Positions 2,010 to 30,806 of a DNA stretch of 64,000 bases are shown one piece after another. How positions within the stretch are numbered: position 1 is the stretch's first letter; each line of letters opens with the position of its first letter. A program made the position numbers and the translations under genes. Location: positions 23,681-87,680 of the forward strand of contig JADHLI010000008.1 in the NCBI GenBank assembly GCA_016780775.1. Direction: 5' to 3'. Source of the stretch: Alphaproteobacteria bacterium. GTDB taxonomy: Bacteria; Pseudomonadota; Alphaproteobacteria; Puniceispirillales; Puniceispirillaceae. A model generated the notes under the pieces. That model worked only from the letters and a program-made list of their open reading frames with translations, searched no databases and was not told the DNA's origin.

Positions 2010-3929
2010 ATGCGCAAACCGCATCTTATCCTAACAACACTTAGCCTGTGCGCCGCATCGGCTAGCTTCATCGTGCCTGCATTGGCACAAGACAGCACAA
2101 CTACGCAAAGCACAAGCGAGCGTCCTATCGTCTATCCATCCGCGTCGATTGCCAATTTCCAGCCCCTGCCGCTAAATGAAGTTCTGCTAAGCGCAGATGT
2201 GGTCACCTCCGATGAAATTGAGCGTTCTACCGCTTCTAGCGTCAGCGAGCTTATCGCGCAAAAAACAGGTATTGAATTTTCCCGAAATGGCGGGCCTGGT
2301 GCGGTAACGTCGCATTTCCTGCGGGGTCAGAAAAGCGCTAACTATGTGTTAATGATCGATGGTATACGCGTTCATGGGGATACTTACGGCAATGTGATTA
2401 CCCCTGAATTAGCGATTGCTCAGATTGAAAAGATTGAGATTTTACGGGGCAATGCCTCTGCCCTCTATGGTGAGGCCGCGGTAGGCGGGGTCATTAACAT
2501 CATCACCAAATCTGGCAATTTACGCGATAGCGGCTTTATTTCCACAAAATATGGGAGCTATGATACGGCAGAGGCCAGCGCTGGCGTTTCAAAATATGTT
2601 AATGGCTTTAACTTGTCTTTTGTTGGCACTAAATTTGAGACCGAAGGGTTTGATGTGCGCTCAGATAGCGCCACAAATCCAGATAAGGATGGGTATAGCC
2701 AAGATAGCTATAATTTCACCCTATCGAGGCGCCTATCCCCAGCCGCCAACATCACCATCGGCCTCAGGAACCGCGAAAGTGAGGGGGATTATGATGATAC
2801 CGTCCCAAGCGGAACTTCAGACACCAGCACCCATGAGCATAATACCGAAAATCAGGAAAGTTTTATCACCTATGAGTTGGAGAAAGGCGCGGCGATAAAT
2901 CTGCGCCTTGACTACAATCAAGCAGAGCGCACCCGCAAAGATTTCATCAATGGCGCGCCAGCAAAAACAGCTGTTTCATGGAAAAACAATGTTATTGAGG
3001 GCAACAGTAAAACGCTAAAACTGGTGAACATATCGCATTTGCAAGGGGATGTTGTGCGCCATAGCATCACCCAAGGGATAGAGCTTATTGACGCTTATTA
3101 TGACAGCGATGGCAGCCGGTCTGAGCGCGATACTGAAGCTGTTTTTGCGGGCTATGGGGCTAAATTTGGCGCGCATGATGTGCAGGCTAATTTGCGCCGT
3201 GATAAGGTGAGTTTAAAAACCACAAGCAATATAAAGGCAGATATGAAGGAAACTTCGTACCTCGCGGGATATGGGTATCGTTTTGCTGAGCATTATAAAA
3301 TAGCCCTTAGCCATGCCACAGGCTTTCGTGCCCCATCCGCAGGTGAATATGGAAGCAATCAAGATCTAAAACCTGAAACCTACACCTCCAATGAGGTATC
3401 CCTGCAACGAGATAAGGATGGTCGCTTGCTGCGCCTTACCGCCTTTGTAACAGAAACTGACAATGAAATTAAATGGCTAAGCGTTTCGCCATGGACACCT
3501 GAAAATATCCAAAAAAATGAAAATACAGGCCTTGAAGTGAACTATAGTGGCAGCACAGAAAACTTTGATTTTGATCTAGATATCACGCTTCAAGACCCAA
3601 AGGAGACCGACACCACCACTGCTTCTGGCGGGCAATCCCTGAAGCGGGCAAAGGCCTATGGTAAATTGAACCTGTCACGCCAGCTAGGCGATTATCAAAT
3701 TGGCAGCACCCTAACCTATTCCGGTCGCAAATTAGATTCTGGCGGCAAAACTATTGCTAGCTTTACCCGCCTTGACGGCTATGTTTCGCGCCAGCTAGGG
3801 GATAATTTGTCGGTAAATCTAAAGGCTGAAAATATTACCAACAGCGAATATGAGACGACTGCAGGATATAGAACGCCGGAACGTAGCCTGTTTTTGACGT
3901 TAAAATATGATTTCGTTAACGACATGTAG
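2010..3929 (+). CDS. btuB: TonB-dependent outer-membrane receptor, probable cobalamin receptor
   Basis: 639-aa ORF with a signal peptide (LCAASASFIVPALAQD) and plug-domain motifs (IEILRGNASALYGEAAVGGVINIITK). It has a beta-barrel-like C-terminus ending LTLKYDF-VNDM. The B12 assignment rests on the upstream riboswitch. Confidence 0.75.
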   Translation: MRKPHLILTTLSLCAASASFIVPALAQDSTTTQSTSERPIVYPSASIANFQPLPLNEVLLSADVVTSDEIERSTASSVSELIAQKTGIEFSRNGGPGAVTSHFLRGQKSANYVLMIDGIRVHGDTYGNVITPELAIAQIEKIEILRGNASALYGEAAVGGVINIITKSGNLRDSGFISTKYGSYDTAEASAGVSKYVNGFNLSFVGTKFETEGFDVRSDSATNPDKDGYSQDSYNFTLSRRLSPAANITIGLRNRESEGDYDDTVPSGTSDTSTHEHNTENQESFITYELEKGAAINLRLDYNQAERTRKDFINGAPAKTAVSWKNNVIEGNSKTLKLVNISHLQGDVVRHSITQGIELIDAYYDSDGSRSERDTEAVFAGYGAKFGAHDVQANLRRDKVSLKTTSNIKADMKETSYLAGYGYRFAEHYKIALSHATGFRAPSAGEYGSNQDLKPETYTSNEVSLQRDKDGRLLRLTAFVTETDNEIKWLSVSPWTPENIQKNENTGLEVNYSGSTENFDFDLDITLQDPKETDTTTASGGQSLKRAKAYGKLNLSRQLGDYQIGSTLTYSGRKLDSGGKTIASFTRLDGYVSRQLGDNLSVNLKAENITNSEYETTAGYRTPERSLFLTLKYDFVNDM

Positions 3930-26281: not shown

Positions 26282-26686
26282 ATGTTTGACGAGTTGAGCC
26301 CAACAGATGTGTATCACGCGCTCACAGAAAACGAAAATAGCCTTTTGCTAGACTGCCGCACCCGCGCCGAATGGGTTTATGTGGGCATCCCTGATATACG
26401 CCTAACAAAGGCACAGCTTGCCCTTATCGAATGGACAGATATTACCGGCCAGCAAAATCTAAATTTTGTAAATCAGTGCCGCGAGCAAGCAAGCACAGAT
26501 ACTGCCATTTTTGTGATTTGCCGCTCTGGGGCGCGTTCTGCTGCTGCGTGCATGAGCCTTGTTCAGAACGGATTTGAAAATGTGTGTAATGTCAGCGAAG
26601 GTTTCGAAGGAGATTTGGATAACCAGAACCATCGTAGCCGTGTAAATGGGTGGAAATATCACAAATTGCCTTGGCACCAAAGGTGA
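26282..26686 (+). CDS. rhodanese-like domain protein
   Basis: 134 aa with a single rhodanese domain and the active-site loop ICRSGARS. It is divergent from acuI. Confidence 0.75.
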   Translation: MFDELSPTDVYHALTENENSLLLDCRTRAEWVYVGIPDIRLTKAQLALIEWTDITGQQNLNFVNQCREQASTDTAIFVICRSGARSAAACMSLVQNGFENVCNVSEGFEGDLDNQNHRSRVNGWKYHKLPWHQR

Positions 26687-26792: not shown

Positions 26793-27827
26793 ATGTCTTC
26801 CCATAAACAGAAAAATTCCGCGTCATCAAATGGCACGGGCAGCCAGAGCAAAAGCTTTTATACCCTTCATATCGCGCCGCTTTTGGATGCTGATAAGTCT
26901 GTGCTATTTTCAGTATCTGGTCCCTTTTCTTCTGTTGGACTAACTTCATCCATGCAGGAATTACGCGAGCGTTTGAGCGGGTTTCAGGCAAAGTTTCAGT
27001 TTAACCTATGTGCTGTTTTTATCGAGCTATATCAGAATATTGATCGTTATGGGTTGCCCCTGCCAGACACAGATGAAAAACAAAGTGAACGCGCCTTTGG
27101 GTGTATCCAAATCACCACCGATGATGCAGGCGGTTACCAGCTACGTGCTATTAACCTTGTCTGCCAAGCTGATACATTCCAGCTTGGCGAAAAGCTATCG
27201 GCCCTACAGGCGTTAGATAAAAAAGGGTTGGCCGCACGCTATCGTGCCCAGCTAGCAAGTCTTGCACCCATTTCAGGTAAAAGCCACCGCCGAACAGGGC
27301 TGGGTCTGATAGATATGGCACGGCGGGTTGATGGTCAATTTTCGTTTATGCTTAACAGGGCTGATGATGATCATTGCCTGTTAATTTTGGAGGCTCATTT
27401 TCAAGAAAATTCTTCAACGCCCCTTGCAACAAGGACAGAAAAAATGAACCCTTTTACGCTTAAAGCGTCTTCTCGTTCTCCAAAAGTGACCCTGAGTCCA
27501 GCCGAAAATAAGCTGTTGATATCCGGTGAGTCCTATCCTGAAAATGTAACTGCCTTTTATGCCCAGCTAGAGGCAGCCTTAAAAGATTATCTCGCCAAAA
27601 ATCCAGAAAGGCTGGAGGTGGATATTGCGCTGCGCTATTTTAATTCTGGCTCTGCACATGCGCTACTTACCCTGTTGCGGATGCTTGACAGCTATGCCCA
27701 AAAGGGGTGTGAAATTAGCCTGCTTTGGAAAGTTGTTGTCGATGATGATATTGGGCGCGAATTTGCCCAAGATATTGCCGAGCAAGCACCTAACCTGTTC
27801 TTAAATATCAGCGAGATGAGCGAATAG
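26793..27827 (+). CDS. fusion protein: SiaB-like (anti-sigma-type) protein kinase + SiaC-like DUF1987 phosphoprotein
   Basis: 344 aa. Residues ~25-205 have the SiaB pattern: SGPFSS, VFIELYQNIDRYG, KKGLAARYRAQL, GLGLIDMARR. Residues 218-344, starting at the internal Met (ATG 27444), have the DUF1987/SiaC pattern: ISGESYPEN, LRYFNSGS, ISLLWKVVVDDD. Confidence 0.7.
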   Translation: MSSHKQKNSASSNGTGSQSKSFYTLHIAPLLDADKSVLFSVSGPFSSVGLTSSMQELRERLSGFQAKFQFNLCAVFIELYQNIDRYGLPLPDTDEKQSERAFGCIQITTDDAGGYQLRAINLVCQADTFQLGEKLSALQALDKKGLAARYRAQLASLAPISGKSHRRTGLGLIDMARRVDGQFSFMLNRADDDHCLLILEAHFQENSSTPLATRTEKMNPFTLKASSRSPKVTLSPAENKLLISGESYPENVTAFYAQLEAALKDYLAKNPERLEVDIALRYFNSGSAHALLTLLRMLDSYAQKGCEISLLWKVVVDDDIGREFAQDIAEQAPNLFLNISEMSE

Positions 27828-27848: not shown

Positions 27849-27902
27849 TATCTTCTTGGGTCATATCTTCTTGGGTTATATCTTCTTGGGTTATATCTTC
27901 TA
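27849..27902. repeat. 3.6 x 15-bp tandem repeat (TATCTTCTTGGGTTA)
   Basis: Read directly. It sits in the gap between the SiaB/C fusion gene and the 106-aa ORF, 50-100 bp upstream of the latter's ATG. Confidence 0.95.
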
Positions 27903-27951
27903 GCATCCATATCGCGCTAAAGTTCAGTCAAAAGCTTGTAGGTGGCATTTC

Positions 27952-28272
27952 ATGATAAGTATAGCTAATCAAAGCATCATGCGTTTATATGAGCGTAAAT
28001 TTGGAAATGAACGTGATAAGCAGGCTTTTATTGAGTCAGTCTCGCGTCTAGAAGTGCGCCTAACTGCAGTCGATGTCAGCTTCCGTCTCTACCAGTCTGA
28101 AACCAACCCTCTAATCTTATCAGAGATTTGGTTTTATCCTGATAAGGATACGATGATGTGGGTGCGCGCCATCATTGATAAAAGCGCTCCTCTACTCACA
28201 CAATTTAATGTGGAAACACGCTCTGACACGTTTGCCTTATGCCGTTCCTTTGATGTCTCAGAAGATGATTAG
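27952..28272 (+). CDS. hypothetical protein (106 aa)
   Basis: A good RBS (AGGTGG) lies 7 nt upstream of the ATG. I recognise no family, and the C-terminus is acidic. Confidence 0.5.
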   Translation: MISIANQSIMRLYERKFGNERDKQAFIESVSRLEVRLTAVDVSFRLYQSETNPLILSEIWFYPDKDTMMWVRAIIDKSAPLLTQFNVETRSDTFALCRSFDVSEDD

Positions 28273-28304: not shown

Positions 28305-30176
28305 TCAGGCTTGGTCTATGTTTCTATCCGATAGCTCTTCTTCGGGGCAAAAAGCAAGCACCATTACATCATCGCGGCGTTCTTCACTGCCTTGCCAGCG
28401 GCGCAGACCACGCATCAGACTATTTGCCAGCTTTTTAGGATCATTACTCTTCGCCTCACGCAATAATGCCTCAAAATATCTACTGCCCATCATTCGTGCA
28501 GGCATACCGCCTATTTGGGTAACAATTCCATCTGTTGCTAGCACAAAACATTGACCATCTAGGGGAATTTTATGCCGCTCAGCTGCCAGAGCTTTATCCA
28601 AATATTGATAGCCTAGAGATTGGCGCATAGCCGGATAGCGTGCAAGCGTGCCGCTTTTAGAAACAGCTAGCAGATCGATATTTGCACCCGCATATTCTAT
28701 ATATTTTTTATCCCTACTTAAACAAATAATAGCACAATCCAGCCCATCTGTTGCATTCTGATAGGGCGTAATATCAAGCGCATCACAAATCTCATCATGG
28801 ATATTTTGTAGAATCTCAGAACAGTTTTTAGGGGCTGTCGGCTGTGTCCTAATTCGGTCAATAGCAGCGGAAACCAGCATCACCATAAACCCGCCTGGCA
28901 CGCCATGTCCTGTGCAATCATAAAACGCAATATAGGGCGTCTCACCGATACTAAAATAGGTCAAGAAATCCCCACCCACCAAATCGCGCGGCTGCCAGAT
29001 AAAACGCACCTTTCCAAAATCAGGTCGCAAATCCTGTTCTTTGGCCAGCAGGCGATGCTGAAAATGGCTGGCATAGGCGACCGAATCACCAAAATTCTGA
29101 TTTGCTTCCGCCAGAGCTTCCTGATTTCGGCGAAATTGTGTAACATCGCGCCCAGTGCCACGATAACCACTAAATTTCCCTTTATCACTGAAAACAGGTT
29201 TACCGCTGATATTGGCAACACAATCCCGCCCATCGCCCGTACGAATACGAAATTCAAACTGCCTAAATTCTGTATTCCGCATTAATTTTTCCTGATGATC
29301 ATCCCATTTCCCCTGCTCATCTTGGTCAAGGGCGAGCGAGGCGAGCGTTTTGCCAACCACCTCTTTTTTGTTCAAACCGGTAAGCTGGAAAAACTGGTCT
29401 GAAACATAAGCAAGCTTGAAATTTCTATCGAGCTCATAAAACCAGTCTGTTGAAATTTCTGCCATATCACAAAAACGTGCCTGACTATCCCGCAGTTGTT
29501 TTTGCGTTTTTTCCATCTTGCTATAATAGCGGCGCGCTGTCGCAGCCATCTGATTATAAATCAGCCCCGCACCACCAAGCTGATGCGCATTTACATCTTT
29601 TGCATCTACCGGATTATCTGGTGTTGAGATCAGCATCGCCTGTTGCAGGTGCATCAATGGGCGCATAACAAGCCGTATCAATAGCAGTGTGAACGTCACC
29701 GCAACCAGCAAAATAACAAAGACAGACAGCACCCCAAAAGTTCGAGTGGAAACCCAGTTCTGTTCTTTGTCATAAGCATTATCTAGCCCAAACTCGATAA
29801 CAAACCCTGTATCTTCAACTGGCATAGGAACCTTTATAATGCCTGCTTGCATATGTTCTGGACAGCCCCGTTCAGGCCAGCTCGAAACCACCTTGCCCCC
29901 TTCAAATAAATGCACACAATGAATAGCAGGAAAGGCAAAAAAGCTGCGCATCAACTGCTTGACAGCCTCGCTATCTTGGCGTTGATAGGCGCGCACAACA
30001 AGCGGGCCTATTTCGACAGCAACGATGCCTACCTGTAATCCAGCTTCTGAGCGCGATACTTGGCTACGATATAGATGAAACCCTACAGTAACCAGCCCTG
30101 CCAACAGGAAAACGATTGCCAAATAGACAATCAGAAAGCTGAAAATCAGGCCACGTCGTTCAGGTGATTTGCGCAT
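28305..30176 (-). CDS. SiaA-like membrane sensor phosphatase (TM-periplasmic-TM-HAMP-PAS-PP2C/SpoIIE)
   Basis: 623 aa. Two TM segments (~10-32 and ~147-169) are followed by a HAMP-like segment (RLVMRPLMHLQQAM) and a PAS-like segment (DWFYELDRNFKLAYVSDQFFQLTGL...FRIRTGDGR). The C-terminal SpoIIE/PP2C motifs are LVGGDF, YDCTGHGVPGGFM, LATDGI and RRDDVMVLAF. Confidence 0.8.
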   Translation of the reverse strand: MRKSPERRGLIFSFLIVYLAIVFLLAGLVTVGFHLYRSQVSRSEAGLQVGIVAVEIGPLVVRAYQRQDSEAVKQLMRSFFAFPAIHCVHLFEGGKVVSSWPERGCPEHMQAGIIKVPMPVEDTGFVIEFGLDNAYDKEQNWVSTRTFGVLSVFVILLVAVTFTLLLIRLVMRPLMHLQQAMLISTPDNPVDAKDVNAHQLGGAGLIYNQMAATARRYYSKMEKTQKQLRDSQARFCDMAEISTDWFYELDRNFKLAYVSDQFFQLTGLNKKEVVGKTLASLALDQDEQGKWDDHQEKLMRNTEFRQFEFRIRTGDGRDCVANISGKPVFSDKGKFSGYRGTGRDVTQFRRNQEALAEANQNFGDSVAYASHFQHRLLAKEQDLRPDFGKVRFIWQPRDLVGGDFLTYFSIGETPYIAFYDCTGHGVPGGFMVMLVSAAIDRIRTQPTAPKNCSEILQNIHDEICDALDITPYQNATDGLDCAIICLSRDKKYIEYAGANIDLLAVSKSGTLARYPAMRQSLGYQYLDKALAAERHKIPLDGQCFVLATDGIVTQIGGMPARMMGSRYFEALLREAKSNDPKKLANSLMRGLRRWQGSEERRDDVMVLAFCPEEELSDRNIDQA

Positions 30177-30182
30177 CTTTTT

Positions 30183-30617
30183 TTAATTTCTCTTTAGCGC
30201 CCTATGCAGAAGGTTCCGGTTATCAACAAAAGTATCAACCACCAAAAATATACCCTCACCTGCCCCTGATTTTGGACGCAGCAGGAAATCTACATCCAGT
30301 TTATTACCCTGTGCATCTAACATTGTTACACATAAATAATAATCTTCTCCAAAGGGGATAACCATTGGATGTTTACCAGCCGGATACAGCATTACACGTT
30401 GGGCGGTTTCACGATTTAGATAGACAAAGCTGCCATCTTTTGCGCTTGCGTCTGAGACAAATTTACTGAGGGTTGCCTGCAATCTTGCAGCGGTTTCAAC
30501 TGGCACATCACGGGCGCTAGCAGGCGATATTAGCTGGCCAGTTAAAAGGATAAAAAATAAACACAGCCAAGCCATAGGTTTAAAGACGCATTTATTACTC
30601 TTAGACCCAGCTGTCAT
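30183..30617 (-). CDS. hypothetical periplasmic protein, co-transcribed with the phosphatase
   Basis: I prefer the start at ATG 30617, which has GAGGTGG 6 nt upstream; the ORF track extends to 30668. It has a signal peptide (...LLTGQLISPASA). Its stop lies 6 nt before the phosphatase start. Confidence 0.5.
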   Translation of the reverse strand: MTAGSKSNKCVFKPMAWLCLFFILLTGQLISPASARDVPVETAARLQATLSKFVSDASAKDGSFVYLNRETAQRVMLYPAGKHPMVIPFGEDYYLCVTMLDAQGNKLDVDFLLRPKSGAGEGIFLVVDTFVDNRNLLHRALKRN

Positions 30618-30806
30618 ATAATCCACCTCAAAGTTACAGTAGCGACAATGCGTACTGTTTCTGCCCATATTAATCTGATTAACCTTTCAAGATGCCTACA
30701 TACTGTTATTTATCGAAACAACAGCACTAAGTTCATCTTGACGCGTTCAGTTTAACATGGTTAACTTTTGAGTGCGAAAACGGGTATAAAAACTATCAGC
30801 GGTTTT

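Follow-up and report, generated by a model that had tools for sequence, protein, structure and literature searches.

A SAR116-specific small protein as a candidate accessory of a SiaABC-like phospho-switch, distinct from the SiaD equivalent

We analyzed a 64,000-nucleotide stretch of contig JADHLI010000008.1 (hereafter, 'the window'), which comes from an alphaproteobacterium of the Puniceispirillaceae and carries genes resembling siaA, siaB and siaC of the SiaABCD system of Pseudomonas aeruginosa. Directly after its siaB-siaC fusion gene lies an open reading frame (ORF) of 106 amino acids (aa), which we call ORF106. An earlier, sequence-only reading of this DNA had placed ORF106 in the output (SiaD) position of the switch. 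Comparison with related loci speaks against this placement: in the relatives a class III cyclase stands in that position, and the ORF comes after the cyclase. We propose that ORF106 would instead be a SAR116-specific accessory of the SiaABC-like phospho-switch, and not the equivalent of SiaD. More specifically, we give about even chances to the view that it is a dimeric accessory, predicted to bind a ligand or a partner, that works alongside the switch.

The class III cyclase and the ORF that follows it

ORF106 (27952..28272, + strand) starts with ATG, and the ORF call and translation give a protein of 106 aa that is predicted to be cytoplasmic. The gene directly before it (26793..27827, + strand) encodes a fusion protein of 344 aa, in which a SiaB-like kinase half (PF19788 DUF6272, E 3e-21) is joined to a SiaC-like phosphoprotein half (PF09345 SiaC/DUF1987, E 2e-29); thus, the location of ORF106 directly after a kinase-phosphoprotein fusion gene is as previously described. 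The kinase half scores 91.7 bits against NF038262 SiaB_fam_kinase, for which the cut-off is 85, and so belongs to the SiaB family, and the solved structures of P. aeruginosa SiaB (6kko_A, phmmer E 2e-9) and SiaC (6k4f_U) can be aligned with the respective halves. The 'YFNSGS' segment of the fusion aligns on 'YLNTSS' of SiaC, which would place a Ser at the position of the phospho-acceptor T68, at the start of helix 2. On the opposite strand, a SiaA-like gene (28305..30176) encodes a transmembrane segment, a periplasmic segment, a second transmembrane segment, a PAS domain and a PP2C/SpoIIE phosphatase domain (PF07228 SpoIIE, E 3.6e-12). It converges on ORF106 across a 32-nt spacer, an arrangement that is kept in all related loci. 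Its match to NF038263 prot_phos_SiaA is partial (164 bits over the PP2C half), well below the equivalog cut-off of 700, and we therefore call it SiaA-like and not an equivalog.

To place this arrangement among relatives, one genome per GTDB species was scanned, which yielded 24 loci with the ORF family, 20 of them Sia loci. All close homologues of ORF106 occur in the same order as in the window, that is, a rhodanese gene, siaB-siaC, the ORF, and a convergent siaA preceded by a 144-aa gene. In most relatives, siaB and siaC are separate genes, and in two loci with unfused siaB and siaC (L014 and L015) the ORF begins 31 nt after siaC. In 17 of the 20 Sia-linked species-level loci, siaC and the ORF are separated by a gene of roughly 330 aa (L021 5994-6995, L037 5992-7017 and 15 others). 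It encodes a class III adenylate/guanylate cyclase (PF00211, E ~1e-25) with a helical N-terminus of about 95 aa. In most loci siaC and the cyclase gene overlap by 4-26 nt; six loci show a 4-nt overlap between the end of the cyclase gene and the start of the ORF, and elsewhere the spacer mostly does not exceed 26 nt. The 4-nt overlap suggests translational coupling between the cyclase and the ORF. Given that a cyclase fills the gap between siaC and the ORF in 17 of the 20 loci, the cyclase holds the SiaD position and the ORF follows it. In other words, a class III nucleotidyl cyclase serves as the SiaD equivalent of the SAR116 Sia subfamily, with the ORF placed one gene beyond this output. A GGDEF protein had been envisaged as the possible conserved neighbor in relatives. 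A cyclase does fill the slot there, but it is of class III (PF00211) and not of the GGDEF type. Read by eye, the SAR116 cyclases (segment 'LDQFIGDA' in L021) appear to have a Gln at what we take to be the base-specifying position before 'IGD', where Lys (ATP) or Glu (GTP) is usual, and we regard their nucleotide substrate as uncertain.

Every SAR116-type Sia locus that we recovered has a member of the ORF family, flanked by siaC (or the cyclase) on one side and by siaA on the other, and siaB, siaC and siaA are present in every such locus examined, so that the ORF does co-occur with SiaB/C-like genes. Judged by spacing, ORF106 is the last gene of the siaB-siaC operon, and the 124 nt that separate it from the fusion gene hold no terminator-like or strong promoter-like sites.

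The window itself carries no such cyclase. A tblastn search with two SAR116 cyclases found no remnant or relocated copy in the 64-kb window or in the other cyclase-less loci, except in L026. Neighbor-joining gave congruent trees for SiaC plus SiaA and for the ORF, in which a cyclase-less clade of its own is made up of the window, L013, L014 and L016. Among the loci compared, fusion of SiaB with SiaC is restricted to this clade (in the window, L013 and L016, with L014 unfused). Inside the cyclase-bearing clade, the cyclase has been lost in L020 and likewise in the metagenomic loci L096, L097 and L100. In L026 (5125-5511), the cyclase gene has suffered an in-frame internal deletion and its catalytic domain is gone, whereas the gene of its sister L025 is intact. 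The L026 remnant keeps residues 1-69, which form the stalk described below, as well as the C-terminal tail, and still overlaps the ORF by 4 nt; it may be a stalk-only remnant that still binds SiaC. Further cyclase-less loci with the ORF are L060, L062 and L046, and the siaC-ORF spacers in cyclase-less loci include -4 nt (L060), 9 nt (L016) and 31 nt (L014). The ORF is kept intact through at least two independent cyclase losses and throughout the clade of the window, and we therefore conclude that its function is independent of the cyclase.

This persistence concerns a genuine gene that is under purifying selection. When 5.8 billion proteins were searched by word index, the ORF106 protein itself turned up unchanged on 21 contigs, along with four further clusters at 70-73% identity, all of 106 aa, which makes five close clusters in total, and an exhaustive profile search together with a second profile search extended the family to about 100 homologous clusters of 97-108 aa. 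Between the window and the 70% homologues, the proportion of synonymous differences (pS) is 0.68-0.78, which is saturated, and that of nonsynonymous differences (pN) is about 0.20; the ratio of nonsynonymous to synonymous substitution rates (dN/dS) is about 0.10-0.13, where computable. ORF106 is also more conserved (70-73% identity) than the adjoining fusion protein (61-66%). Because there are five close and about 100 wider clusters, and because dN/dS is about 0.1, the ORF goes beyond chance, and the possibility that it is not a gene is excluded. Thus, the conservation in relatives on which the earlier proposal depended is indeed found. A Shine-Dalgarno-like AGGTGG (27940..27945, + strand) stands 6 nt before the ATG, and the strong ribosome-binding site noted earlier is therefore present, with a trivial difference in the gap (6 nt, not 7 nt). 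The named sources of the family are 'Candidatus Puniceispirillaceae', the 'SAR116 cluster' and unclassified marine Alphaproteobacteria; the family is confined to SAR116/Puniceispirillales and is unannotated.

A stalk module shared by the outputs next to SiaC homologues

We also scanned metagenomes with a SiaC alignment, and obtained 80 loci from marine, freshwater, soil and peat samples. The commonest gene beside siaC in these loci is again a class III cyclase, of 340-350 aa. Outside SAR116, such cyclases typically occur in same-strand siaA-siaB-siaC-cyclase operons that do not contain the ORF family, for example on soil, peat and freshwater contigs (L091, L099, L101, L110, L115, L116 and L119). 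In five loci (including L069, L088 and L103) the gene beside siaC encodes a HisKA/HATPase_c histidine kinase, and in three (L094, L104 and L111) it encodes a GGDEF protein. As a separate observation, L077, L094, L104 and L107 have two siaC-like genes in tandem or the order siaC-siaB-siaC.

The cyclases, the histidine kinases and the GGDEF outputs share a homologous N-terminal helical module of about 70 aa, which we call the stalk and which ends in R-L-x-[RK]-[LIVM]-S-D-x-x-[EQ]. When a full-length GGDEF protein was used as the query against P. aeruginosa SiaD (7e6g_A), this motif fell on 'RIARISDGFQ', with S50 and Q54; the full-length query was needed, since a phmmer search of the PDB with only the stalk as query missed SiaD. 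A crystal structure of SiaC bound to SiaD and mutagenesis have identified the S50/Q54 motif of SiaD as the SiaC-binding site, and SiaD has a second motif, 'ARISDRYQ', with S82 and Q86 (PMC8457831). A hidden Markov model (HMM) of the stalk module detected 62 proteins in the loci collected, namely 52 cyclases, five kinases, three GGDEF proteins and two truncated genes, all of which adjoin siaC. From these sequences, the stalk looks like a portable SiaC-receiver module.

The same HMM found no stalk in the ORF106 family, in window ORFs of at least 50 aa or in the flanks of the cyclase-less loci, where the best E was about 1. Given that ORF106 has no stalk module, it is not a canonical stalk-type SiaC client, and by the same profile no such client is encoded within the window. 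We propose that the SiaC half most likely has a stalk-type target whose gene lies beyond the window. A 'T-R-S-D-T' segment in strand 4 of the ORFs of the window's clade was considered as a stalk motif and rejected as a chance resemblance, since it lies on a predicted beta strand, in another register, and is negative with the stalk HMM. A comparison of the helix 2/helix 3 surface of SiaC between cyclase-bearing and cyclase-less lineages was likewise considered and rejected as non-discriminating, because the kinase and the phosphatase use the same surface.

The earlier statement that no GGDEF, EAL, HD-GYP or sigma factor protein is encoded near the Sia-like genes holds in these scans. The [GSA]G[DE]EF motif is absent from all ORFs of at least 100 aa across the 64-kb window, a crude regular-expression search of the window gave no HD-GYP or sigma-70 region-2 motifs, and the genes within +/-8 kb carry precomputed Pfam labels for metabolism and transport only, with none for GGDEF, EAL or a sigma factor.

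Predicted fold of ORF106 and its possible roles

Remote homology searches and structure prediction, which had been suggested for ORF106, gave a predicted fold class of the ABM type and no sequence family. Pfam and NCBIfam scans of ORF106 returned no family match, and in a Pfam scan of 39 family members at E <= 5, none of the 39 matched any ABM-clan family (PF03992 ABM, PF07876 Dabb or similar), in line with the earlier remark that the protein belongs to no recognized family. The candidate assignments were noise only (Enolase_like_N, E 0.02; G-protein gamma, E 0.4), and PDB profile searches with the ORF106 family alignments gave nothing below E 0.4. We also aligned the family profile with Escherichia coli YgiN, whose sequence was verified against 1tuv and 1r6y. 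The E-x-W of strand 3 falls opposite 'IEQWES' in YgiN, but the hhalign probability is 1.6%, which is not evidence of homology.

With an alignment of 39 sequences, AlphaFold (AF2) gave a model of ORF106 with a predicted local distance difference test score (pLDDT) of 83.9 and a predicted template modeling score (pTM) of 0.71; confidence was reached only with the 39 sequences, and an alignment of five gave an unusable model (pLDDT 44). The model consists of strand 9-17, helix 20-36, strand 43-48, strand 55-62, helix 65-77 and strand 87-95. A Foldseek search of the PDB yielded 28 matches at E <= 1e-3, nearly all of which are dimeric ferredoxin-like/ABM proteins. The top matches have E 7e-6 to 1e-3, TM 0.65-0.76 and probability 1.0, and the matches include 2op5 and 2od4 (both from marine metagenomes), MM_1583, SnoaB, LsrG, Rv0793 and PA3566. 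ORF106 is thus predicted to have a ferredoxin-like beta-alpha-beta-beta-alpha-beta fold of the dimeric alpha+beta-barrel (ABM/Dabb) class. Nine residues are invariant in the 39 diverse members, namely R11, Y13, R15, R36, E58, W60, Y62, P63 and W70. Those on strand 1 (R-x-Y-x-R) and strand 3 (E-x-W-x-Y) alternate, and the two strands are neighbors in the model; therefore, R11/Y13/R15 and E58/W60/Y62 lie together in a single continuous cluster, on the same face of the sheet.

ORF106 shares its size of about 100 aa and its topology with the dimeric alpha+beta-barrel/ABM superfamily (YgiN, ActVA-Orf6, SnoaB, LsrG and IsdG; 2op5, 2od4 and 4dpo), but it shows no sequence-level membership by Pfam, PDB profiles or hhalign. 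It also differs from the IsdG-type haem oxygenases, which have a conserved His that is missing from the ORF106 family, and we know of no counterpart of the R-x-Y-x-R plus E-x-W-x-Y-P-D set in characterized ABM enzymes.

Based on the model, we suggest that ORF106 would form a homodimeric barrel, and that its invariant cluster (R11, Y13 and R15; E58, W60 and Y62; and R36 and W70 on the helices) may bind a small ligand, probably an anionic one, or a partner surface. Such a protein would act on the input or on the output side of the switch.

Several further observations bear on this proposal. The ligand-binding and accessory roles are drawn from the predicted fold and from conservation. A sister subfamily of the ORF (99-103 aa; L017 3103-3414 and L038-L041) has the same invariant residues and stands alone, between aldehyde dehydrogenase/CMD (carboxymuconolactone-decarboxylase) genes and TerB/ClpB genes, and no sia genes occur near it in the 12-14 kb examined in Puniceispirillales genomes. 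In a sister lineage (L063, L066 and L070-L072), rhodanese-siaB-siaC converges directly on the PP2C gene with no cyclase or ORF between; therefore, Sia-like modules without a cis-encoded output exist, which is in keeping with the proposal. The stand-alone subfamily and this sister lineage weaken the idea of an obligate link between the ORF and the switch. In L070, a distant ORF relative of 97 aa lies 2.2 kb beyond siaA. Against the proposal, synteny across the clade extends to the housekeeping genes on the flanks; position alone is thus weak evidence, and part of the co-localization of the ORF with the switch could be vertical synteny. Moreover, the midpoint root is ambiguous, and the clade of the window either lost the cyclase or never had it; if it never had one, then ORF106 would be the older neighbor of siaC. 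Finally, the long-term retention of an intact switch, in which ORF106 is the sole adjacent non-Sia cytoplasmic protein, fits a role as output.

This last point introduces the question of whether ORF106 is, after all, a new output, as the sequence-only reading had supposed. Under this explanation, ORF106 would be a non-canonical output that replaces or predates the cyclase, and the unphosphorylated SiaC half, or the SiaB kinase half in partner-switch fashion, would bind and control ORF106. What stands of the supposition is that ORF106 is conserved, co-occurs with the switch genes and directly follows the fusion; what does not stand is that the slot is its own, given that a cyclase is the usual output and that ORF106 has no stalk. 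The ORF is universally kept in SAR116-type Sia loci while the cyclase is dispensable, it directly follows siaC in cyclase-less loci with the short spacers given above, and the SiaB-SiaC fusion is limited to the cyclase-less clade. In addition, no stalk-bearing candidate lies within the 64 kb, ORF106 is the only non-Sia cytoplasmic protein downstream in the operon of the window, and the group that solved the SiaC-SiaD structure has suggested DUF1987 proteins as modulators of the proteins next to them (PMC8457831). However, the stalk is common to all 60 full-length outputs found beside SiaC homologues, SiaABC-cyclase operons outside SAR116 have no member of the ORF family, the stand-alone subfamily keeps the invariant residues with no sia gene nearby, and siaB-siaC of the sister lineage converges on siaA with no ORF between. 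We thus consider an output role fairly unlikely. A narrower version, which we rate as unlikely, is that the fused kinase-phosphoprotein gates the ligand binding or activity of a stalk-less, ABM-fold ORF106, which would be a new kind of client. If this were true, the locus would be a self-contained switch with a non-nucleotide output, whether from before or after the cyclase.

We also considered the possibility that ORF106 is a co-transcribed passenger, that is, an ABM-type enzyme or binder with a role of its own, for example in redox or oxygenase chemistry. Its ABM-fold structural neighbors are mostly small enzymes or ligand binders, which is consistent with this possibility, as are the aldehyde dehydrogenase/CMD/TerB context of the stand-alone subfamily, the L070 relative that does not adjoin siaA and the extended synteny, by which position alone proves little. 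However, in six loci the ORF start and the cyclase stop share 4 nt, which suggests that the two genes are translationally coupled, and the position between siaC or the cyclase and siaA has been strictly kept despite saturated synonymous sites and independent cyclase deletions, so that a mere passenger seems improbable. Last, the idea that ORF106 serves the cyclase as an accessory, whether as a regulatory subunit or as a receptor of its cyclic-nucleotide product, and is a leftover in the lineage of the window, draws on the location of the ORF immediately downstream of, and apparently translationally coupled to, the cyclase in most species and on the ability of small ferredoxin-like proteins to bind cyclic nucleotides (SbtB-cAMP is a weak structural match at rank 47, TM 0.46), but it appears very unlikely in view of the strong purifying selection on the ORF without a cyclase (in the clade of the window and after at least two losses), the divergence of that clade itself to saturation, the absence of the ORF family from many SiaABC-cyclase operons outside SAR116, and best structural matches that are ABM/Dabb and not PII-like.

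Neighboring genes and comparison with known systems

Upstream of the fusion gene, a gene on the same strand (26282..26686, + strand) encodes a single-domain rhodanese (PF00581) with an intact CRSGARS active-site loop. Most SAR116-type loci, and L071 of the sister lineage, likewise have a rhodanese gene upstream of siaB, and it may be part of the Sia module. Directly upstream of siaA and on the same strand, another gene (30183..30668, - strand) encodes a protein with an N-terminal hydrophobic segment, of a type (144-161 aa) that was detected in about half of the related loci. It has no match in Pfam or NCBIfam, and is probably a periplasmic partner of the sensor domain of the phosphatase. The spacer between the fusion gene and ORF106 contains a 15-bp tandem repeat, TATCTTCTTGGGTTA, in 3.5 copies (27849..27901, + strand; Tandem Repeats Finder), which gave three matches against 0.11 expected by chance. 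Its copy number varies among strains, with 4.5 copies in the otherwise identical L009, and L007 has a scaffold gap at this place. Elsewhere in the window, an ordinary and unrelated cobalamin riboswitch (RF00174, 108 bits; 1691-1904, + strand) lies upstream of an ORF of 639 aa (2010-3929).

SiaABCD is known as a cyclic di-GMP and biofilm switch of Pseudomonas. The loci described here indicate that one three-protein switch has been plugged into several outputs, namely a class III cyclase, a histidine kinase and, rarely, a GGDEF protein, and the stalk motif offers a simple sequence rule for predicting SiaC clients, to which ORF106 is an exception. SAR116 bacteria are abundant in the sea, and in their Sia loci the ORF is always on the switch, outlasts the cyclase and does so without a stalk. 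To learn whether it senses an input, serves as a second output or is a passenger would reveal how a switch can persist once its canonical effector is gone. In the searchable literature we found no description of cyclase-coupled Sia systems, of the stalk rule or of ORF106. The fold class of ORF106 is a known one.

In partner switching, the unphosphorylated STAS-like protein engages its partner (PMC8457831). The classical switches RsbU/RsbW/RsbV and SpoIIE/SpoIIAB/SpoIIAA, as well as HsbA-HsbD and BgrV-BgrR, share with the window the logic of a PP2C phosphatase, a GHKL-type Ser/Thr kinase and a STAS-like phosphoprotein. The window differs from the classical ones in that it has no sigma factor, in that its STAS-like protein is a DUF1987 protein, and in that the kinase and its substrate are one polypeptide. 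The closest comparison is with P. aeruginosa SiaABCD. The ABM-fold gene and the rhodanese gene of the window have no counterpart in the described SiaABCD system; moreover, siaB and siaC are fused in the window, and siaA lies on the opposite strand and encodes a PAS domain. SiaD is a GGDEF diguanylate cyclase, whereas the window has none and its relatives have a class III enzyme (PF00211). On the other hand, the window shares with SiaABCD the PP2C sensor phosphatase, the SiaB-family kinase and a DUF1987 protein with the Y-x-N-[TS] acceptor motif, and in the relatives the gene after siaC likewise encodes a dimeric nucleotidyl cyclase with a SiaD-type stalk motif.

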